From the NCBI RefSeq assembly GCF_000023965.1, contig NC_013202.1, positions 1,680,001 through 1,712,000 of the forward strand: DNA of 32,000 nt. Reading direction: 5' to 3'. The position numbers and the translations under genes were made by a program. The notes under the pieces were generated by a model that was given only the letters and a program-made list of their open reading frames with translations, was not told the origin of the DNA and ran no database searches. This document shows, one piece after another, positions 12,883-20,923 of this stretch; position 1 is the first letter of the stretch; every line of letters starts with the position of its first letter. Origin of the DNA: Halomicrobium mukohataei DSM 12286 (lineage in GTDB: Archaea; Halobacteriota; Halobacteria; Halobacteriales; Haloarculaceae).

Positions 12883-13877
12883 GCCTCGCCTCTGAGCTCG
12901 TCGAACTTCCGGGCGGCGTCGCCGGACTCGATCGCCTCGCGAGCCGCCTCGACGCCGGCCTCGTGGCTGTCGGCTTCACCGGCGACGTAGATCGCCGCGC
13001 CCGCGTTCGCGAGGATGATGTCCTGTTTCGGTCCGGTGACGGTCCCCTCGACGATCCCTCGCAGGTCCTCGGCGTTTTCTTCGGGCGTGCCGCCGGCCAC
13101 GTCTTCGATGTCGGCCGTCGTCAGTCCGATGTCCTCCGGGACGAGCGTGTACTCCTCGATCTCGGAACCGGTGACCTCTGCGACGACGGTCTCTCCGTGG
13201 ATCGCGATCTCGTCGAGGCCCGATCCGTGGACGACCATCGCTCGCTCGACGTCCATCCGAGCCAGTGCCTCCGCGATCGTCGACACGAGGGCCGGATCGT
13301 AGACGCCGAGCACCTGCGCGTCCGCACCGGCGGGGTTGGTCAGCGGTCCGAGGATGTTGAAGATGGTCCGCATGCCGAGTTCCTTGCGCGGGCCGATGAC
13401 GGCCTTCATCGCCGGGTGGAAGACGGGCGCGAGCATGAACCCGATCCCGTCGTCCTCGATGGCCTGCTCGACCTGTGGCGGTTCGGCCTCCACGTCGACG
13501 CCGGCCACCTCCAGCACGTCCGCGCTCCCCGACGAGGAGGAGACTGAGTAGTTACCGTGCTTGGCGATGGGGACGCCGGCACCCGCGGCGACCATCGTGC
13601 TCGTCGTCGAGACGTTGATCGTGTCGTAGTCGTCGCCGCCGGTGCCACAGGTGTCGACCAGCGGCCGCCGGTCGGGGTCGATCGTCCGCGCGGCGTCGCG
13701 CATCCCCTCGGCGAAGCCGGCGATCTCCGCTTCGGTCTCCCCTTTCGCTCGCAGACCCGCCAGCAGTGCCCCGATCTGGGCCTCCGTGGCGTCCTCGAAG
13801 ACCGCCGTCGCTGCCTCGCGAGCCTCGTCCTGTGTCAGATCCTCTCCCTCGGTCACGCGTTCGATGTATTCCTGCAT
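12879..13877 (-). CDS. trpD: Anthranilate phosphoribosyltransferase
   Basis: DTCGTGGDDYDTINVST, IAKHGNYSVSSSSGSADVLE, FMLAPVFHPAM and NILGPLTNPA. Confidence 0.92.
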   Translation of the reverse strand: MQEYIERVTEGEDLTQDEAREAATAVFEDATEAQIGALLAGLRAKGETEAEIAGFAEGMRDAARTIDPDRRPLVDTCGTGGDDYDTINVSTTSTMVAAGAGVPIAKHGNYSVSSSSGSADVLEVAGVDVEAEPPQVEQAIEDDGIGFMLAPVFHPAMKAVIGPRKELGMRTIFNILGPLTNPAGADAQVLGVYDPALVSTIAEALARMDVERAMVVHGSGLDEIAIHGETVVAEVTGSEIEEYTLVPEDIGLTTADIEDVAGGTPEENAEDLRGIVEGTVTGPKQDIILANAGAAIYVAGEADSHEAGVEAAREAIESGDAARKFDELRGEA

Positions 13878-14068
13878 TGTGGGTCACCAATGAACTCTTT
13901 CGTGTTGTAATGTACAACCTCGTACATCCAAATAAGGCTGTCGGGACCACGTGACGGATTCGATATCGCGACATCGCCCGAGTGGAGACGTCGTGTCGCT
14001 CGAATCGCTCTCGACCGCACCGTGCCCACAACCCACAGACGGCACTGGGATTCGGTTTCGAAACATTC

Positions 14069-14076
14069 AATTATAC
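14069..14076 (+). promoter_or_regulatory. TATA box candidate for tRNA-Val
   Basis: AATTATAC lies 38-45 nt upstream of the mature tRNA 5' end. This fits a short 5' leader. Confidence 0.35.
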
Positions 14077-14113
14077 CCCTCTGCAACGGATGAGTGTAGA
14101 TAGAAGCCAACGC

Positions 14114-14187
14114 GGGTTGGTGGTCTAGTTGGTTATGACACCTCCTTGACATGGAGGAGGCCGGCGGTTCAAATCCGCCCCAACCCA
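14114..14187 (+). tRNA. tRNA-Val (anticodon GAC)
   Basis: GGGTTGGTGGTCTAGTTGGTTATGACACCTCCTTGACATGGAGGAGGCCGGCGGTTCAAATCCGCCCCAACCCA. The acceptor stem GGGTTGG/CCAACCC, the anticodon stem CCTCC/GGAGG with loop TTGACAT, and the T-arm GGCGG-TTCAAAT-CCGCC all fold by hand. No encoded CCA. Confidence 0.9.
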
Positions 14188-14286
14188 TTTTTGACGACAC
14201 AAACCGTGAGCGGAGCGAGCGGTCTGTGTCGGCGAAATTGGTGACACGGATTGGAAGCAGACGAGACGAGCATCGCGAGTCTCGGC

Positions 14287-14312
14287 GCGGTTCAAATCCG
14301 CCCCAACCCATT
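14287..14312 (+). repeat. Orphan duplicate of the tRNA-Val 3' end (26 nt, identical to 14164-14189)
   Basis: GCGGTTCAAATCCGCCCCAACCCATT occurs twice, 123 nt apart. The second copy has no 5' half, D-arm or anticodon arm. Confidence 0.85.
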
Positions 14313-14559
14313 CTCTGATTCCTCGCGACGACGAGCACGACGATTCTTTCGCCGGTCTGGGTTCCGCCCGAGTCGACAGACGGCACCGCTTCGAGGACAC
14401 TTCCTCGTGAGTGTCGCGTGTGGCTCGGCGGTGGCCTCTCGGAAGCCGGCGTGTTCGAAACCACCGCTCGACGACGGTGTGCCCGCTGTGTCACAATTTT
14501 TCACGCACGACATCGGTGGTCCCAATAGCTTCATACGCCGCCCGCCAGAGTGTGTCCAT

Positions 14560-14916
14560 ATGGACGAGACGATCAGCTCACGTCGGCCGTTCGAACAGTT
14601 CGTGCTGCTGGCGGTTGCCGAACTGACCATCGACGGGGAGACGCCCGTCCAGTCCCACGTGGTGACGGAGACGATCAAGGACCAGCTCGATACGGTCGCT
14701 CGTGATTCGTTCGGCGGCGTCGAACGACAGGAGGTCGTGTCGGCGCTGGGATCGCTCGCGGCGGACGACCTGCTGTCGACCGAGCGGACCACGTCGGCGA
14801 CGGGGAAAGGGCGGCCCGCCTACGACGCCGAAGTCGGTGTGAAGACGATCGTGGAGACACTCCTGGACGACGACACGGTCGGTCCCTACGCCGAACGCCT
14901 GCAGACCACGGTCTGA
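14560..14916 (+). CDS. Small putative winged-helix DNA-binding protein (118 aa)
   Basis: Trimmed to the ATG at 14560 (MDETISSRRPFEQFVLLAVAELTIDGETPVQSHVVTETIKDQL...VVSALGSLAADDLLSTERT...GKGRPAYD). It is acidic. The helix-turn-helix plus wing call is by eye only. Its stop directly abuts the next ORF. Confidence 0.55.
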   Translation: MDETISSRRPFEQFVLLAVAELTIDGETPVQSHVVTETIKDQLDTVARDSFGGVERQEVVSALGSLAADDLLSTERTTSATGKGRPAYDAEVGVKTIVETLLDDDTVGPYAERLQTTV

Positions 14917-14967
14917 GTGGCGTCTCGGAACGAAATCCACTTGGAGATAGCCAACCGATCTCCGCGT

Positions 14968-15687
14968 ATGCGCGAGTTCGAGTTCACGGTCCAGTACGAG
15001 CCGGGCGCGGACGACCTGATGGACCTCTTTGTCGAGACTCCGTCGCTCTCCGCTCGCTCGCAGGCCTGTTTCGCCAACGCGGACGCGATGTGGCGAATCG
15101 ACCGCATCGTCGGCCCGTCGGACGTGCTCGACCGCCTCGACGATCTCTATCTCGACGAGTCGATCTGTAACGAGTGTCTGGACATGGAGCGGTGTTCGTC
15201 CACCCGCGAGTACCAGGTTCTTGACGCCGGCCCGGAGCATCGCCTGATCTACACGCGCCGCCAGGAGATCGACCGCTGTCACTCCATCCCGTATCTCGCC
15301 GTCGACTACGTGGGCGACGGGGTGCTGTTCGACGCGGAACGATCGGGCGACGAGTACGTCTGGCGGGTCCTGATGCCGGAAGCGACGCCGGTCGGCGAGC
15401 TGTACGACGCGATCGAGCGAAACCTCAGAGACGGACTGACGCTCGAACTGGGCCACGTCGGCGGAATCGACGGCTGGCGTGGCGACGATGCCTTCGACGC
15501 CGATCTCACCGTCGAGGAGCGCCGAACGCTGCAGGCGGCCGTCGACGCGGGATACTACCGGACGCCACGGGAGACGACTGTCGACGAACTGGGCGAGCGA
15601 CTGGACGTACCGCGATCGACGGTACAGTATCGGTTACAGCGAGCGGAGGGTAAGGCCGTCGAACAGTTCGCTGACGGTAGCCTCTAG
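14968..15687 (+). CDS. HTH_10 (bacterio-opsin-activator-like) family transcription regulator
   Basis: MREFEFTVQYEPG... is an N-terminus typical of this haloarchaeal family. The C-terminus is LTVEERRTLQAAVDAGYYRTPRETTVDELGERLDVPRSTVQYRLQRAEGKAV. An alternative GTG start lies at 14917. Confidence 0.8.
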   Translation: MREFEFTVQYEPGADDLMDLFVETPSLSARSQACFANADAMWRIDRIVGPSDVLDRLDDLYLDESICNECLDMERCSSTREYQVLDAGPEHRLIYTRRQEIDRCHSIPYLAVDYVGDGVLFDAERSGDEYVWRVLMPEATPVGELYDAIERNLRDGLTLELGHVGGIDGWRGDDAFDADLTVEERRTLQAAVDAGYYRTPRETTVDELGERLDVPRSTVQYRLQRAEGKAVEQFADGSL

Positions 15688-16169
15688 ACGATCGAGGCGT
15701 TGCTCGCTTCCTGCTCGATCGCCGGTGGTTCGCCGGCTTCCAGGCGTTCGAGTCGGTCCATGATCGTATGGACCACGTCACCATTCGTACAGGGAGCCAC
15801 GTGCTGGAGTTCTCCGCCCGCGTACTCGGCCAGTCCCATCACGGGCAGGATCATCGCCGAGTAGTCGTCGGTGATCTCCGAAGAGATCTCGGTCGTCTGG
15901 TAGAACGACTCCAGCGAGACGTTGTTCGACAGCGCCCACTGCTTGAACTCGGCGACGCGATTGAGGATGTACCGGCCCTCCTCGGTGTGGGCGGCCGCCG
16001 ACTCCCGGGACACCTGCTTGCCCCAGACGATGACCGAGAAGTCTTCGATCGCGTCGTTCTGGTCCAGCGTTTCGAGTCGCTCGATGACGGCCGCCTGTCG
16101 CTCGTGGGCACCGTCCGGAACGAGCGACCGGACGTAGAGTTCGATGTGGGGTGTGGGGGTATCGGACAT
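15684..16169 (-). CDS. Conserved acidic hypothetical protein (161 aa), convergent partner of the HTH_10 gene
   Basis: Clean acidic ORF MSDTPTPHIELYVRSLVPDGAHERQAAVIERLETLDQNDAIEDFSVIVWGKQV... with GC3 bias. I recognise no motif. Confidence 0.6.
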   Translation of the reverse strand: MSDTPTPHIELYVRSLVPDGAHERQAAVIERLETLDQNDAIEDFSVIVWGKQVSRESAAAHTEEGRYILNRVAEFKQWALSNNVSLESFYQTTEISSEITDDYSAMILPVMGLAEYAGGELQHVAPCTNGDVVHTIMDRLERLEAGEPPAIEQEASNASIV

Positions 16170-16515
16170 GGTTCAACTGATCTACGTGTCAACACTCCCG
16201 CACCACACTAATACTTTGCGTGGACCCGTTGACGTGGGTAACGTTCACATACAAAATTGTGGGTAGAGCGGTTTTGCACTGGCTCTGACACCGGTTAGAT
16301 CTGTGATCGTTCAACCGACAGGGACAAACGCTTTCCAACTATAACTGGATGTTTAAGAAATACTATATTGGTCGCTCTGCGGTGTCTCGCTGTTGGGGTC
16401 GGAGAGGCGTCACCGTCGTCGCTGGGTCTCCGGTTCCGCCTCACACCGTCTGTGAAAGCACGTTACGATAGCACTCCCTCGGTAGCGACAGCCCGGAGAC
16501 AGACAGCCGGCAGCG

Positions 16516-16824
16516 TCAGTCGTCGTCGAGTCGGGCGAGTGTCTCGTGAGCGCCGACGACCATCGCGGGGACGACGATCATGAAGACGTGTTCCTCGATC
16601 GGAATTCCGAGCAGTTCGACGCCGGTTCGCATCGGGATCGCGAACACGCCGACCGCCAGCGTGTACCAGTCCCAGACGTACGCGAACGGATAGAGGACGG
16701 CGATCGTTCGGGCAGCGGTCCGGCCCGCGTCGGCGTACCAGAGCAGGCCGGCCGCGACGAGACCCCACACGATCTCTGTCGCGAGGTACGTGTACGGGCC
16801 GAGGACGGTGATGTCCGGGAGCAC
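16516..16824 (-). CDS. Lycopene cyclase domain-containing membrane protein (single-domain, 102 aa)
   Basis: Three hydrophobic helices with YTYLATEIVWG and GIPIEEHVFMIVVP (a PxEE-type motif of CrtYc/Yd-like domains). The family call is by eye. Confidence 0.6.
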   Translation of the reverse strand: MLPDITVLGPYTYLATEIVWGLVAAGLLWYADAGRTAARTIAVLYPFAYVWDWYTLAVGVFAIPMRTGVELLGIPIEEHVFMIVVPAMVVGAHETLARLDDD

Positions 16825-16950
16825 GCCGGGTGTTCGGGCGCTGGCACAATGAACTCCGGGGGTGAGCGAGTCCGACGAGCGTTCTCAGCTGCTGGAACCG
16901 GAACCAACTTTGATTACCTCTGGCGTCGAACCCTCGTAGTGGGAAGTACG

Positions 16951-18096
16951 ATGAATATAGCTGATATTGCCACTAGTGATTTTGTTGAACTCGACGCCGA
17001 TGTCCGCCTCGGCAAAGTGCGCTCGATCTTCGAGCGCGAGAACCCCAAGGGAATCGTCATCACCGAGGACGGGGCGTACGCCGGTGTGATTACCCAGAAG
17101 CAGCTGGTCCAGTCCCACGTCGAGGACAACGCCAAGGCAGGTGCGATGATGCGGTCGGCCCCGAAAGTCGAACGCCACGACGACGTCCGCGAGGTCGCTC
17201 GCGTCCTCGTCGAAGGCGGTGCGAAGATCGCACCGGTCTTCGAGGGGGGCTCGCTGTGGGGGGTCGTCACTGGCGACGACATTCTCGAAGCCGTCCTGGA
17301 GAATCTCGATGCCCTCACCGTCGAACAGATCTACACCAAAGACGTCGTCACCATCACCGAGGAGACCCACGTCGGGCAAGCGATCAACCTCCTGCGCAAG
17401 CACAGCATCTCTCGTATCCCCGTGCTCGACGACGACGGAGACCTCTCTGGCATGGTCACGACCCACGACATCGTCGACGTGGTCGTCCGGGATATGAACA
17501 AGGCGACGCGGGGCGACCGCTCCGGCGAGAACGACCGCGTCCTCGATCTGCCGGTCTACGACATCATGAACAGCCCCGTCGCGACGACCTCTCTCGACGG
17601 TTCGGTTCGAGATGCCGTCGAGCGGATGCTCGAAAACGACTTCGCCGGCCTCGTCGTCACCCCGGACCACGACGACTCGCTGGTCGCCGGGATCGTCACC
17701 AAGACGGACGTGCTCCGCGCGCTGACGTTCACCGAGGAGGAGCATATGGACGTACAGATCACCAACATCAACCTCCTGGACAACACGATCTCTCGGGACG
17801 ACATCCGCGAAGAGATCGGCGACGTGGCCAGCAAGTACCAGGACATGCAGGTCCAGCACGCCCACGTCCGCTTCCACGAGCACAAGGAGAAACTCCGTGG
17901 CACGCCCCTGATCCAGTGCCAGATCCGTCTGCGGACCAACAAGGGCCAGGCCGCCGGCTCCGGCGAGGGCTACGGCTCCGACACGGCGTTCAACGTCGCT
18001 CTCGACAAACTCCAGCGGAACGTCCTGGAGATGAAAGGCGTCCGCGCCGACGAGGAGTACCGCGGCCAGCTGCTGCGGAAGCTGGGCGAGCTGTAG
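16951..18096 (+). CDS. CBS-domain protein (two CBS pairs) with a C-terminal HPF/RaiA-like (ribosome-hibernation-factor-like) domain
   Basis: Trimmed to the ATG at 16951 (MNIADIATSDFVELD...). There are four CBS-like repeats (for example ISRIPVLDDDGDLSGMVTTHDIV and AGLVVTPDHDDSLVAGIVTKTDVL). The tail is MDVQITNINLL...HAHVRFHEHKE...IQCQIRLRTNKGQAAGSGEGYGSDTAFNVALDKLQRNVLEMKG. It follows the b-a-b-b-b-a pattern of HPF/YfiA. Confidence 0.75.
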   Translation: MNIADIATSDFVELDADVRLGKVRSIFERENPKGIVITEDGAYAGVITQKQLVQSHVEDNAKAGAMMRSAPKVERHDDVREVARVLVEGGAKIAPVFEGGSLWGVVTGDDILEAVLENLDALTVEQIYTKDVVTITEETHVGQAINLLRKHSISRIPVLDDDGDLSGMVTTHDIVDVVVRDMNKATRGDRSGENDRVLDLPVYDIMNSPVATTSLDGSVRDAVERMLENDFAGLVVTPDHDDSLVAGIVTKTDVLRALTFTEEEHMDVQITNINLLDNTISRDDIREEIGDVASKYQDMQVQHAHVRFHEHKEKLRGTPLIQCQIRLRTNKGQAAGSGEGYGSDTAFNVALDKLQRNVLEMKGVRADEEYRGQLLRKLGEL

Positions 18097-18303
18097 CGCC
18101 CTCCTTCCTCTGTATCCGCCGAGCCCCGCGAGGCGGTTCACTCGATCGAACGGTGCGAGGCGCGCCGAAGGCGGCCCTCGATGTGAACGGGGAACGAACT
18201 GACCCGTGAACGGAGTGAGATCGAGCGTTTTTCACCCACGTTTTTACGCGAGGGTTCCCGCAGTGAGCGAAGCGAGCGAGGAAACCCGACGCGGAAAAAG
18301 GTG

Positions 18304-18348
18304 GAGGAGTACCGCGGCCAGCTGCTGCGGAAGCTGGGCGAGCTGTAG
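18304..18348 (+). repeat. Orphan duplicate of the last 45 nt (including the stop) of the CBS gene, identical to 18052-18096
   Basis: GAGGAGTACCGCGGCCAGCTGCTGCGGAAGCTGGGCGAGCTGTAG occurs twice, separated by a 207-nt hairpin-rich insert (18097-18303). Confidence 0.9.
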
Positions 18349-18422
18349 GGGTCGACGGCGTTCTTTTCCACACGTTTTGATCGGGCATCTTCGCTCTGGC
18401 ACGATGGAGTATCGCGGCACCG

Positions 18423-18815
18423 TCACGGCGCGGTTCGGCCGTCGTTCGAGCGTCGCTCTGCCAGCAACAGAACGACGCCACCGAGGAGCGTCACGTAGAC
18501 TCCGACGTCGGCGATAAACATGCCAATGATTCCGTATTTACCGACACAAAAAGTGACGGACGTCACTACTGCGACGGTTCCGACCGACACTCGAAACGAA
18601 CTCTCGCTGACCCATTTGAGGTCACTGACCATTCCCAGAGCAGTGACGAGCGCAAGTACGAGCGTGACGAGACCGTACGTTTCTGTCCCGGAATGCATCC
18701 CCGGTAGTCCGACTGTCAGGATCGCCTCGTGCGTCGGGTTAGCCCTGACCCACGGTAGATACGCCCCAACGAGGAGAAAACACAGACCGATCCAGACTCG
18801 TCTCCGTGAGTGCAT
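18423..18815 (-). CDS. Hypothetical four-helix membrane protein with atypical (A/T-richer) codon usage
   Basis: Trimmed to the Met at 18815 (MHSRRRVWIGLCFLLVGAYLPWV...). It is hydrophobic throughout. Third-codon positions are visibly less G/C-rich than in the flanking genes. Confidence 0.5.
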   Translation of the reverse strand: MHSRRRVWIGLCFLLVGAYLPWVRANPTHEAILTVGLPGMHSGTETYGLVTLVLALVTALGMVSDLKWVSESSFRVSVGTVAVVTSVTFCVGKYGIIGMFIADVGVYVTLLGGVVLLLAERRSNDGRTAP

Positions 18816-19004
18816 CGCTATCTCGTACACTGCCCGCTGGAGGTTGTAGTTCTTCTGTCCGATATTTCGGTCAAATGACTGGAACGACCACGCTGGCAGT
18901 CGGAGAACAGCCAATCAGATACGGCCGAAACTTCCGTGTCGAAGTTCGTCCCGACAGTATTTTTATGGAGTGTGCGAGTGAAATTGAAGACGCGAACCGC
19001 TCGA

Positions 19005-19488
19005 TTACGATCGATACTCGTCGATGTCGACGGCGCGTCTCGTCTCCTCGTGTGTGAGATCGCTGTCGGCGGAGACGATCGGTGCGCCCCACTCACGGCC
19101 GACCGCAGCCACGAGTCCGTCGACGCCGTCGAGATACGGTCCGCCGGCCGGAATCTCGTCTGCGATCCGGGCAGCGGTCTCGGACAGTTCCGCATCGACT
19201 TCGACGACCTCTACCCAGCCCAGCGCCTCGATCGCTTCCTCTAAGTCGCCGTCTGGGTGGTTGCCGACGCCGACGATCGCTTCGGTGTACGCTGGTGCGG
19301 GTGCGATCCAGGTTTGGTCGGCACCACCGTTGGCCTCGTAGTACTCTCTCGTCGCCGAGAGCCCACTCATACGGATTATTGTAGCGATTTACCGGTGATC
19401 GTCTACTCCGTGGCGACGATCACCGGTAAGCAACTACAATAAACCGTATCAGGTAATCGATGAGAAAATTCGCGTCCAGGACTCTCAT
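19005..19488 (-). pseudogene. vapC: vapC (PIN-domain toxin) interrupted after codon 13 by MITE copy C
   Basis: The ATG at 19488 overlaps the antitoxin stop (ATGA) and encodes MRVLDANFLIDYL. The 79-nt element follows. Removing 19370-19451 (82 nt) joins it in frame to SGLSATREYYEANGG...GAPIVSADSDLTHEE..., giving a 133-aa PIN protein. Confidence 0.85.
19370..19448. mobile_element. Foldback MITE copy C (79 nt), flanked by TCA (19367-19369) and TCA (19449-19451)
   Basis: TACGGATTATTGTAG...CTACAATAAACCGTA termini. The divergent centre is TTACCGGTGATCGTC / GACGATCACCGGTAA, a perfect 15-bp stem. Confidence 0.85.
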
Positions 19489-19727
19489 CGATCTCCCAGC
19501 CGCTCCGCGCGGTCCGCACGCTCGTCTCTGGCCTTGGCTCGTTTCGTCCGGATCCACTCACCTTGTTCCTCGGACAGCACCCCGAACCCGTCGTCGAAGT
19601 CACTCTCCGTGGTGTCGGCGATCAATCGTTCGAGGACGTCGTTGTACGACTCGCCCTCGCGTCGCCGGTGTTCGAGGCGTTCTTTGATCCGTTCACTGAC
19701 CCGGATCTGTTCGTCGGCGGTTGCCAT
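19485..19727 (-). CDS. vapB: Antitoxin of the vapBC pair (ribbon-helix-helix-like, 80 aa)
   Basis: Trimmed to the Met at 19727: MATADEQIRVSERIKERLEHRRREGESYNDVLERLIAD... is the usual haloarchaeal antitoxin pattern. The stop overlaps the vapC ATG. Confidence 0.75.
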   Translation of the reverse strand: MATADEQIRVSERIKERLEHRRREGESYNDVLERLIADTTESDFDDGFGVLSEEQGEWIRTKRAKARDERADRAERLGDR

Positions 19728-19754
19728 CGCTCGTGTCGACGTTGGCGTTGACAG

Positions 19755-19760
19755 AATAAA
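19755..19760 (-). promoter_or_regulatory. TATA box candidate of the vapBC operon
   Basis: The minus strand reads GATTTATTC, with TTTATT ending 28 nt upstream of the vapB ATG. This spacing fits a leaderless transcript. Confidence 0.45.
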
Positions 19761-19820
19761 TCGTTTGGCTCTCCCCATCCGGTCGTGTTCAGATAAGAGA
19801 TCAGTGCAGGCAGTCTGAAG

Positions 19821-20109
19821 CACCGAAAGCCCTCGTACAGTTGCGGTCCCGCGACTCGCTGTGCGCGCTTCGCGTGCTTGTTCTGAGAGAGCAAGCTCTC
19901 TCGACGTTCGCCTCTCTTCGTTCGGGTCACCTTCGTCGGGGTTCCCGCAACTGTACTCGCCCTTTCATCCGCCAGGGTTCAGACTGTGAGGCAGCCGAAT
20001 CCTGGCGGATGAAAGGGCGAGGCCCGCTCCGGGGTTCTGCGGCGGCACTATCCGAACGGAGTGAGGATATCCGCCACAGAACCCCGGAGCGGGCCGAGGG
20101 CTTTCGGTG
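19821..20109. repeat. 289-nt composite palindromic element: a 15-bp closing stem enclosing three abutting long hairpins
   Basis: CACCGAAAGCCCTCG (19821-19835) pairs with CGAGGGCTTTCGGTG (20095-20109). The three inner stems are TACAGTTGCGG/CCGCAACTGTA, the 21-bp perfect stem 19956-19976/20001-20021, and the 24-bp stem 20022-20045/20071-20094 with one mismatch. Confidence 0.8.
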
Positions 20110-20231
20110 TCTCCAACTCAGAAAATGCAGCGGCTTATCTGAACACTACCCCCCATCCGGTCGTGTTCGGATATGAGATTTGAGAGGGCACTACTCAAGC
20201 GCCGAATGATTATTAAAATTACAAGAGTCGC

Positions 20232-20405
20232 TCAAATACCGGAATTCGTATAACCTGACAATGTTGGAAACAGGAACAGTAGAAGAAGTAGTATCGCTAG
20301 AACTGCGTGTTTGTAACGTCGGTTGTATCCCGAATATCCGGCGCCGAACAGGAGTCCAAGGATGCATAGTGCATAGATGATAGAAGGGATGTTTACACCA
20401 AACAT
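20232..20405 (-). CDS. Possible 57-aa two-helix membrane micro-protein inside a low-GC islet
   Basis: The minus-strand ATG at 20405 to TGA at 20234-20232 encodes MFGVNIPSIIYALCILGLLFGAGYSGYNRRYKHAVLAILLLLLFLFPTLSGYTNSGI. It is below the ORF-track cut-off and its A/T-rich codons are unlike the host genes. Confidence 0.35.
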   Translation of the reverse strand: MFGVNIPSIIYALCILGLLFGAGYSGYNRRYKHAVLAILLLLLFLFPTLSGYTNSGI

Positions 20406-20862
20406 ATTTACAACCCGCTTCGACTACATTAGAATTCTACGATTTCCGGATAATAGTGTGCAATAGACTAGCTGATACTAACAGCTATGATAAACTGCAG
20501 GTGGCCGTAATCTGGGTGGTCTGATGTCTCTGTGAGCGTATCTGAGAACTCATCTCGTAGCTTTTCCCAGCCAGGATCGTTCCCCCGTCCCAAGTTTGTA
20601 CCTGTACTGATGTATCGGAGGTATAGCCCAACGTACAGTGACCATGTCTCCATCCGTCGTGAGGCGGGGATGAATTGACCAGGACGCCCACTGGAGATGA
20701 CCAATGGGCGGACTACCTGTTGTGTTGGGCGGCATTCGCGCGACCGAGTGGTCCGAAGGACCCGGCAGGTCGCGCAATTCACCGGACGAGCGAAGCGAGT
20801 CCGGCCTTTTTCACCACCGGGAGAGCTCGCTCTCCCGAGCCTCACTTCGCTTCGCTCAGTGA

Positions 20863-20923
20863 GACCACGTTTTTGCGCAAGTGGTTCGCGCACCGCGCGA
20901 ACCCGCAGCCGAAAAAGGTGGTC
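20863..20923 (-). terminator. Hairpin plus oligo-T immediately after the cdc48 stop (terminator candidate, symmetric on both strands)
   Basis: GACCACGTTTTTGCGCAAGTGGTTCGCGC-ACC-GCGCGAACCCGCAGCCGAAAAAGGTGGTC. On the cdc48 strand the stop codon is followed by ACCACCTTTTTCGG. Confidence 0.4.

Follow-up and report, generated by a model that had tools for sequence, protein, structure and literature searches.

A duplicated gene end around a hairpin cassette in Halomicrobium mukohataei: evidence favouring a recombination footprint

In a 32,000-nucleotide (nt) window of the genome of the haloarchaeon Halomicrobium mukohataei DSM 12286, the last 45 nt of a gene for a CBS-domain protein are followed by a hairpin-rich insert and then by a second, identical copy of themselves. 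The insert ends in a palindrome that belongs to a family dispersed through the genome, and other members of the family carry duplicated gene ends in the same position. We favour the interpretation of the 45-nt repeat as a recombination footprint and not as the product of a transposase or an integrase. The history proposed for it is composite, an illegitimate join at the end of the palindrome followed by maintenance through homologous recombination, and on balance we think it probable, the origin step being the part that we infer. The later steps have been observed across the family, and at the CBS locus by comparison of two genomes: the GGTGG end of the palindrome is the point at which orphaned gene ends are attached, and the cassettes are lost precisely, amplified, swapped and shared across genera. 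Coordinates below refer to the window (the whole stretch analysed) unless prefixed with C1 or C2 for a genome contig. The source genome is called G000; it comprises two contigs of 3,110,487 and 221,862 bp with a G+C content of 65.6%, and the congeners compared with it are G002 (97-98% identical to G000), G003 (~95%) and G006.

The 45-mer GAGGAGTACCGCGGCCAGCTGCTGCGGAAGCTGGGCGAGCTGTAG was found by a repeat search and by direct reading at 18052-18096 and at 18304-18348, with 45 of 45 positions identical and 252 nt between the two starts, leaving an insert of 207 nt (18097-18303). An initial annotation, made from the sequence of the window, had reported exactly this arrangement. The chance expectation for an exact 45-mer pair in 3.33 Mb is about 4e-12 or less. 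The upstream copy (DR1) ends a gene whose product contains four CBS domains (Pfam PF00571, E 1.5e-39) and in which the C-terminal ~110 amino acids (encoded at 17760-18096), a putative HPF/RaiA-like part, have no Pfam match at E 0.01 or below. Orthologues are present in 37 of 41 relatives at 77-97% identity, with the stop in the same position in all of them. The DNA 3' of the two copies is dissimilar (CGCCCTCC... as against GGGTCGAC...), the DNA 5' of the downstream copy (DR2) is palindrome with no resemblance to the CBS gene, and local alignment of the flanks yields only the 43-45 nt match. Because the flanks are unrelated and nothing like the CBS gene lies upstream of DR2, the orphan is not part of a longer paralogue fragment, an outcome that the initial annotation had named as fatal to its reading; its description of an orphan copy with unrelated 3' flanks, distinct from a tandem segment duplication, is borne out by the same alignment. 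No open reading frame (ORF), integrase or transposase was found inside the 207-nt insert. The genes that adjoin it are the CBS gene and an ORF for a hydrophobic protein without a Pfam match, and there is no recombinase gene in or beside the insert.

A BLAST search of the insert against its own genome gave about 60 matches, most of them in the final 95 nt. A profile built from strict matches (nhmmer) returned 41 matches, which represent 33 independent loci, and the family consensus is a small hairpin followed by TTTTTCGCC-CCACGTTTTT-N5-7-GAGYGGT-(variable inner hairpin)-ACCCGA-N5-7-AAAAAGGTGG. We define the core family by a T-run and CCACG-T5 arm, a variable inner hairpin and an A5-GGTGG arm, with a total length of 52-130 nt, and the CBS insert belongs to it (18227-18304). 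The terminal inverted repeats CCACGTTTTT and AAAAAGGTGG have one mismatch, and a covarying CGACG...GGTCG variant is present at four loci. Identity among copies within the genome is 74-94%, most of the differences being compensated changes of the inner stem. Of 26 genomes sampled from the GTDB family of G000, probably Haloarculaceae, 20 have the strict pattern, as does 1 of 63 from the next family; it gave no match in the other sampled families of the class, and neither did a reversed-pattern control. In 33 of 38 copies the strand reading CCACG to GGTGG has the more stable fold of the two (Wilcoxon p = 2e-6), a bias that fits a possible role for this strand as RNA or single-stranded DNA. The terminal palindrome would most likely act as a two-way transcription stop or as a structure of the 3' untranslated region.

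The association of the cores with duplicated gene ends was measured by aligning the 700 nt on each side of every core, with a local score of 23 taken as the threshold for a duplicate. A direct duplicate is present at 15 of the 33 loci (scores 23-360); shuffled sequences reached a maximum of 15 or less, and a score of 23 was reached at 3 of 400 random genome positions. The duplicates are 23-160 nt long and show a constant polarity. In all 15 cases 0-9 nt separate GGTGG from the start of the downstream copy, and between the end of the upstream copy and the core there is a gap of 0-124 nt, filled by locus-specific sequence or by extra small hairpins. At 14 of the 15 loci the repeat includes the stop codon of a gene reading toward the core, so the functional end is the upstream copy and the orphan is the one at GGTGG. 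At the remaining locus (C1:1197370) a gene reading away from the core has its promoter and initial 17 codons duplicated, and it is the copy on the CCACG side that joins the intact gene; the rule is therefore one of the flank on the T-run/CCACG side and not of 3' ends as such. These statements of gene context were drawn from inspection of loci and from the stop codons that the repeats contain, the GC3-based gene caller being noisy. The same hairpin family is thus flanked by unrelated, locus-specific repeats at 15 loci, and the host gene is intact in every case, as the initial annotation had proposed. In two places the arrangement has been amplified, with six 154-nt units at C1:819105-819948 and three 182-nt units at C1:2825301-2825842; each unit consists of gene end, small hairpin and core, and each array is closed by one further orphan copy. 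It had been argued beforehand that a 45-bp repeat is too long for a transposase-type target duplication, with which we agree, adding that its length is also too variable across loci. The recurrence that the same annotation had made its test is present at the 15 palindrome loci and also at 18 of the 50 tRNA genes. Its suggestion of one shared mechanism directed at gene 3' ends goes further than the evidence, given the promoter and 5' end duplicated at C1:1197370. The position of most repeats near a stop codon may owe much to selection and to the end of homology between alleles.

At the tRNA genes the orphan 3' ends lie 60-240 nt downstream, are 21-40 nt long and usually begin at GGTTC of the T-arm. 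A tandem tRNA-Asp pair makes up one of the 3' matches and one of the 5' matches, and apart from it a duplicate on the 5' side is seen at one tRNA only (tRNA-Gly, 17 nt). One example, at a tRNA-Val(GAC) gene (14114-14312 with its orphan), lies 4 kb upstream of the CBS locus; its insert opens with a T5-GACGACACAAACCG-(TGAGCGGAGCGAG)-CGGTCTGTGTCGGC-GAAA hairpin (z = -4.07) and contains a further hairpin with z = -2.28. The tRNA inserts carry a hairpin with a GAGCG loop, together with a module resembling an inverted T-arm (GGATTYGARCCCTGGAAGTCGC), whose pairing partner is the T-arm of the orphan. The initial annotation had proposed to test whether the inserts share ends; only the small GAGCG-loop hairpin is common to the tRNA inserts and the protein-gene family, and the CCACG...GGTGG palindrome is absent from the former. 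We read the tRNA set as a sister family of the same architecture and not as the same element. Low-G+C foreign DNA follows the tRNA-Val orphan in G002 (G002:C1:1620617-1624048), and the DNA that in G000 follows the orphan, including the CBS gene, sits on the second, 644-kb contig of G002 (G002:C2:246397-249560) where it is preceded by a 15-nt remnant that resembles an att site (CCGCCCTAACCCATT). The arrangement points to a replicon-scale rearrangement or to an integration at tRNA-Val. Derivation of the tRNA-Val insert by deletion from the element integrated in G002 was considered and rejected on the mismatch of their ends.

That the loci are truly polymorphic for presence or absence of the insert is confirmed by congeners with a single copy. 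When a concatenated query of twelve loci was compared with G002, G003 and G006, the paired alignments at eight loci overlapped on the subject by exactly the repeat length, and the subject therefore has one copy and no insert. The empty sites correspond base for base at C1:1437861, 1898132, 2634728, 2970844, 1197370, 1177429, 1185376 and 749016. At tRNA-Val the site is empty in G003, with the tRNA joined directly to the DNA that in G000 follows the orphan, and filled in G002. The comparison of the CBS locus with relatives, which had also been proposed, was productive in one respect, since the cassette is shared with G002, and yielded no empty CBS site among 41 relatives, because synteny breaks at the stop codon in all but G002, the only one to share anything beyond it. 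In G006 (G006:C49:19511-23110) the CBS stop is followed directly by N and then a run of G (masked) and then by the core next to cdc48, so the state of the CBS site cannot be read there. In a sample of 121 genomes of the family two candidates were scored per genome, and absence from it is weak evidence. A search for the source of the young insertions gave a best match within the genome of 94% (C1:1898132 against C1:2634884), which makes recent copy-and-paste within the genome unlikely. At the gene of C1:1898132 the G002 allele has no cassette, and 24 nt of the gene end are cleanly repeated in tandem (AGCGCGCTGGCCTGAGTGGACGGC twice; G002:C2:217400-218500); this duplicate could have stayed behind as a relic orphan when a cassette was lost, or have arisen by slippage.

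The history of the two repeat copies can be followed at the CBS locus itself, where the cassette is common to G000 and G002 alone. Their inserts are 97-98% identical, and the cassette therefore predates the split of the two genomes. In G000 both DR1 and DR2 read ..CTGCTGCGGAAGCTGGGC.. (CTG/CTG) and in G002 both read ..CTGCTCCGGAAGCTCGGC.. (CTC/CTC), the G002 orphan having one further synonymous change relative to its own DR1 (GAG>GAA). Two substitutions are thus shared by both copies within each genome and differ between the genomes, from which it follows that the copies exchanged sequence after the split. This indicates that the CBS repeat copies probably undergo gene conversion and are not a one-off, frozen insertion scar. 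At four further loci (C1:521539, 701446, 1898132 and 3010679; Table 1) the same cassette is found in other genera with the same junction bases and the same orphan start codon, and there the orphan is closer by far to the gene end of its own genome than to the orphans of other genomes. The pattern is one of long-term concerted evolution of orphan and gene.

Among 14 imperfect pairs from six genomes, 46 of 60 differences between orphan and gene fall at third codon positions, and counted by codon there are 33 synonymous changes, 15 nonsynonymous changes and five stop-codon swaps. The synonymous excess over the 42% expected for decay in situ under a rough model is significant (p = 1.6e-4), in a test that pools loci picked for imperfect repeats and relatives that are not independent samples. 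In G000 the orphan at C1:1185376 has ten third-position differences from the gene, none of which alters the peptide, and it shares states with the G003 allele. At the same junction G002 has a fresh 100-nt copy of its own allele, and the interior of its core is that of a different family member. Two orphans follow the core at C1:3010679 and at C1:1898132, first a new one that is perfect and then an older one that has decayed. Orphans such as that of C1:1185376 would, to judge from these codon patterns, be fossils of functional alleles. The exchange of one family member for another at a single site (G002:C1:1302900-1303900 against G000 C1:1185290-1185520), in genomes that are 97-98% identical, amounts to a 'switch'.

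The sequence of events that we favour would begin with an illegitimate join, at the GGTGG terminus, between DNA that stops with the palindrome and DNA starting 45 nt before the CBS stop. This could come about if two alleles or chromosome copies with breaks at different positions were joined, a homology-facilitated illegitimate recombination in a polyploid archaeon prone to recombination, or by a backward template switch once the nascent palindrome folds. By either route the intact gene end would stay to the left, with an orphan copy to its right that in the CBS case borders a strain-variable islet. Selection would retain only those products in which the gene is whole, and the repeat would therefore always end near the stop, where homology between alleles with different neighbours ends. 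Thereafter mutual conversion of the copies would produce concerted evolution, crossing over between them would delete the cassette precisely and restore empty sites, unequal exchange would generate tandem arrays, and replacement of the gene allele while the orphan stays would leave the synonymous 'fossil' differences. The orphan would also serve as a right homology arm that is independent of the neighbouring DNA, such that gene end and cassette may move between strains whatever lies downstream. A tentative and rather less probable extension of this idea is that the cassettes are selfish 'recombination hitch-hikers' that own both homology arms; they would be copied into empty alleles, even those of other species, by plain homologous recombination in polyploid, mating haloarchaea, with no enzyme of their own, and gene conversion would keep the arm matched.

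Several points weigh against a recombinational origin as we describe it. The founding event is unobserved at the CBS locus, where no relative has an empty site. Microhomology at the junctions is weak or absent (1 nt at the CBS locus), and that the end of the palindrome may be prone to breakage or may stall replication is something that we infer. The role of the palindrome as a terminator is likewise argued from sequence only. The orphan at C1:2634884 appears to be decaying, with three nonsynonymous changes and one synonymous change from a gene copy that agrees with relatives; it suits plain duplication in situ, and more than one route may exist. Retention across genera could mean that the orphan is functional.

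Duplication in situ, as an error of replication, is one of the other explanations. The nascent strand would fold after the palindrome, slip back 23-160 nt and recopy the gene end, giving a full tandem unit or a lone orphan with no need of a second allele or of foreign DNA. Full tandem units do exist, in G137 at the gene of C1:3010679 and in the G000 arrays; the perfect, fresh orphans at C1:3010679 and C1:1898132 sit at the core end, ahead of the older ones; G002 has the cassette-free 24-nt tandem duplicate at C1:1898132; and the C1:2634884 orphan decays as a neutral copy would. We nevertheless think such an error unlikely to be the general origin, as it requires a second, precise forward jump to drop the second hairpin block and leaves unexplained both the orphans that resemble functional alleles of other lineages and the distribution of the C1:1898132 cassette, which is in G000 and in G094, of a distant genus, and not in G002, G003 or G006. 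That the orphan is kept for a function is a different kind of explanation and, in our estimation, an improbable one. Convergent read-through into the orphan, stopped at the T-run of the palindrome, would yield an RNA antisense to the 3' end of the CBS mRNA, or palindrome and orphan together would form a regulatory RNA. The near-identity of orphan and gene maintained across genera would be expected from this, as would the first T5 met by a convergent transcript, CCACCTTTTT, just past the orphan, and the better folding of the sense strand in 33 of 38 cores. Set against these are the clean loss of orphans in close relatives with no visible consequence, the variation in orphan length and right boundary, the decay or truncation of some orphans, and the fact that gene conversion alone can explain the similarity.

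Two explanations invoke an enzyme. Were the cassette a non-autonomous transposon resembling a MITE (miniature inverted-repeat transposable element), the 45-nt repeat would be a target-site duplication made by a trans-acting enzyme with long and variably staggered cuts. It does have terminal inverted repeats (CCACGTTTTT and AAAAAGGTGG), presence/absence polymorphism with single-copy empty sites, and subfamilies of related cores at different genes. A fixed, short target-site duplication is not what is found, however; there is locus-specific sequence between DR1 and the core, no duplicate at all at 18 of 33 cores, and a one-sided polarity that would not be expected from a symmetric cut. Copies are 74-94% alike, even insertions that postdate the split of G000 and G002 have no near-identical source, the differences in the orphans are of a synonymous type, and no gene framed by element ends exists anywhere in the genome, where a search for an autonomous partner with the same ends gave one distant pair (C1:2974932-2976339), a chance match in ordinary genes. 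We therefore hold transposition of this kind to be very improbable. Less credible still is that the repeats are attL and attR of an element that used a tyrosine or serine integrase to enter the gene 3' end, bringing a copy of this end with it, and has since lost almost all of its interior. A duplicate 3' end that preserves the gene, synonymous differences in orphans and the standing of tRNA 3' ends as classic att sites would all agree with this, and the tRNA cases look the most att-like; a low-G+C element truly does follow the tRNA-Val orphan in G002. The end of that element is unlike the 97-nt tRNA-Val insert, and at least 15 protein-gene loci and 18 tRNA genes would each need a different att site and near-total deletion to 55-230 nt. 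The inserts are moreover of the same hairpin family at all loci, the lengths and boundaries of the repeats differ between lineages at one gene, and no integrase lies in or beside the insert.

Various known systems share some of these features. The REP, BIME and REPIN elements of bacteria are thought to act as terminators or mRNA stabilisers and are associated with RAYT (IS200/IS605-like) transposases. Like them, the cores are short, G+C-rich, imperfect palindromes, intergenic, mosaic and nested, present in many diverged copies, mostly after gene 3' ends, and restricted to a lineage; they differ in being an archaeal family and in having T5/A5 arms, and REPs are not known to have copies of the adjoining gene end, 23-160 nt long, on their flanks. 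No RAYT-like partner was seen at the cores, and no search aimed at one was made. Prophage e14 and phage 21 in icd of Escherichia coli, and integrative elements in tRNA 3' ends, supply a duplicate 3' end that keeps the gene and displace an orphan with mostly synonymous changes, by means of a site-specific integrase with one fixed att per element and an element on the kilobase scale. The cassettes also leave the gene intact by a duplicate 3' end and have orphans with mostly synonymous differences, but they consist of a 55-230 nt hairpin insert at dozens of genes with no recombinase. Canonical MITEs are likewise small, non-coding, foldback and strain-polymorphic and often lie by stop codons, whereas they have a fixed, short duplication and near-identical copies and the core family has a duplicate of 23-160 nt or none and copies that have diverged with compensatory stem changes. 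In fungal mitochondria, at atp6 of Allomyces, double-hairpin elements and gene hybrids with mobile ORFs are found and a homing endonuclease ORF is implicated. There too hairpins lie at gene ends and an insertion supplies a replacement C-terminus and orphans the native end, in an organelle; no nuclease gene was seen at the cassette.

The closest haloarchaeal parallel comes from strains of Haloquadratum walsbyi, in which a repeat-bounded sequence in one strain corresponds to a single copy in the other ('repeat-mediated deletion'), unrelated DNA occupies identical positions between conserved genes ('deletion-coupled insertions'), and 'SwitchRepeats' are seen at one position, the repeats being mostly <20 bp and interpreted as deletions (Dyall-Smith et al., 2011; PMC3119063). 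The interval between the CBS gene and cdc48 is akin to a deletion-coupled insertion and the core swap at C1:1185376 to the SwitchRepeats; that work describes neither a hairpin family with gene-end orphans as its regular neighbours nor their polarity or concerted evolution. Orphan C-terminal modules at rhs, cdi and type VI secretion system loci, for example of Vibrio cholerae, have been ascribed to homology-facilitated illegitimate recombination (PMC5361080). Incoming DNA there also recombines through a conserved segment and leaves the old gene end downstream as an orphan with homology, but the displaced ends are different toxins with immunity genes under diversifying selection, whereas here they encode the same peptide and a non-coding cassette lies between. 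A published description of an architecture of gene-end orphan and hairpin was not found in the literature searched.

If our interpretation is correct, a gene-end palindrome repeatedly creates and maintains a spare gene end, and that spare end governs how the cassette is lost precisely, amplified in tandem and spread horizontally. This would give a testable handle on the origin of the 'deletion-coupled insertions' and repeat-bounded indels of haloarchaea, and would bear on why gene order breaks exactly at stop codons and on how non-coding repeat families spread without a dedicated enzyme. The right homology arm that is independent of its neighbour is in our view the most interesting consequence. 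Should the cassettes in fact be hitch-hikers on recombination, they would represent a previously undescribed, enzyme-free form of mobility that helps to explain synteny breaks at gene stops. Orphans that are dated fossils of earlier alleles record past allele replacement, and orphan gene and tRNA ends will mislead predictors of att sites and prophages and callers of pseudogenes.

The 207-nt insert is composed of three stem-loop modules (Table 1), and the motifs and long imperfect hairpin quoted for it in the initial annotation are all present. Module 1 has no strong copies elsewhere in its own genome. Module 2 carries GAACGG.G.GAG-type motifs, and its inner part has matches of 84% at C1:701582-701641 and 93% at C1:2825382; at C1:701582 the similar sequence is nested within the loop of another palindrome (C1:701552-701679). 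The core in Module 3 is matched by the core regular expression at C1:1698236-1698304 and is 84-87% identical to the cores at C1:1197454, 3010794 and 1185393. Its CCACG...GGTGG hairpin (18229-18308) folds at -35.3 kcal/mol (z = -4.07), and none of 200 shuffles was equally stable; the fold of the entire 271-nt stretch is unexceptional at ~66% G+C (z = -1.06), and only single modules are significant. T5 runs on both strands bracket the hairpin, GTTTTTCACCCACGTTTTT on the plus strand and CCACCTTTTT on the minus strand, and a terminator-like match lies at 18342-18359. A scan of 13500-19500 against Rfam 15 at E 1 or below found only tRNA-Val and one sub-threshold chance match, and a scan for sigma-70 promoters, a model irrelevant for archaea, gave no match. 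Across the family the small hairpins have purine-rich loops (GAGCGGAGCGAG, GAGCGAAGCGAG or GAACGGAGTGAG) and stems that vary from copy to copy, and the hairpin that opens the tRNA-Val insert is exactly of this type. All cores, for example at 18246-18295, have their T5/A5 arms separated from the inner stem by a purine-rich internal loop, GAG(Y) against (C)GA(N); by analogy, the tandem G/A on both strands of this loop recalls a putative protein-binding motif of the kink-turn or loop-E-like kind. A guide-RNA reading (TnpB/omega-RNA-like) was weighed and abandoned, as the supposed guide fits a filled allele as well as an empty one and the palindrome is in structure a simple hairpin.

Table 1. Features of the CBS locus and its surroundings (window coordinates), and loci with the same cassette in other genera (C1 coordinates)
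Feature	Position	Strand	Remarks
tRNA-Val(GAC) case	14164..14312	+	26-nt 3' end 14164-14189, 97-nt insert 14190-14286, orphan 14287-14312
CBS-domain gene, owner of duplicated end	16849..18096	+	415 amino acids from first ATG; ORF open from 16546
DR1, functional last 14 codons and TAG	18052..18096	+	Sequence, repeat search
Module 1, locus-specific spacer with small hairpin CCGCC-GAGCCCCGCGAG-GGCGG	18097..18140	+	-11.8 kcal/mol, z = -1.9
Module 2, composite hairpin, outer stem CTCGATC/GATCGAG around two inner hairpins	18141..18226	+	z = -2.95
Module 3, T-run and core, GTTTTTCACC-CCACGTTTTT-ACGCGAGGGTTCC-(loop GCAGTGAGCGAAGCGAGCGA)-GGAAACCCGACGCGG-AAAAAGGTGG	18227..18304	+	nhmmer E 5e-16
DR2, orphan gene-end copy	18304..18348	+	First base is last G of GGTGG
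Spacer to convergent gene, with half-core-like TTCTTTTCCACACGTTTT	18349..18422	+	Left edge of DNA found only in G000 and G002
Convergent hydrophobic ORF, 163 amino acids, no Pfam match	18423..18914	-	First islet gene; only in G000 and G002
Second core palindrome	20865..20921	+	GGTGG end 1 nt from convergent cdc48 stop; right edge of islet
Junction GGTGGTAGCGA followed by TGTGGA..	C1:521539		Also in G043 and G077
Junction GGTGGTCGCGT followed by GAG..	C1:1898132		Also in G094; absent from congeners G002, G003, G006
Nested module conserved	C1:701446		Also in G129
Orphans of 24-60 coding nt	C1:3010679		Also in G002, G007, G044, G060, G137 (full tandem unit in G137)

Beyond DR2 lies the strain-variable islet that separates the CBS gene from cdc48. 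In G000 and G002 the interval is ~2.7 kb (18097-20860) and holds the cassette, the orphan, the hydrophobic ORF, a vapBC pair hit by a MITE and a low-G+C islet. The two genes are neighbours in G003 also, where the interval is 715 unrelated nt with one small membrane-protein gene. Conservation restarts at a hairpin module (20732-20799) and then exactly at the CCACG of the second core, which is likewise the exact start of the conserved block in G003 and G006. DR2 is therefore the left border of the islet and the second core its right border, since conservation breaks and resumes there. The islet thus has hairpin cassettes at both borders, in which it resembles the 'deletion-coupled insertions' of Haloquadratum. 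The second core is one of the 18 without a duplicate; in ten of these the stop codon of a convergent gene lies 0-4 nt from GGTGG. Because the cdc48 block starts at the CCACG end, cores with and without a duplicate alike have termini that match the borders of conserved blocks. Examples of cores at convergent stops are C1:474789, 1060324, 1230898, 1586853 and 2948363, and 20865-20923 in the window.

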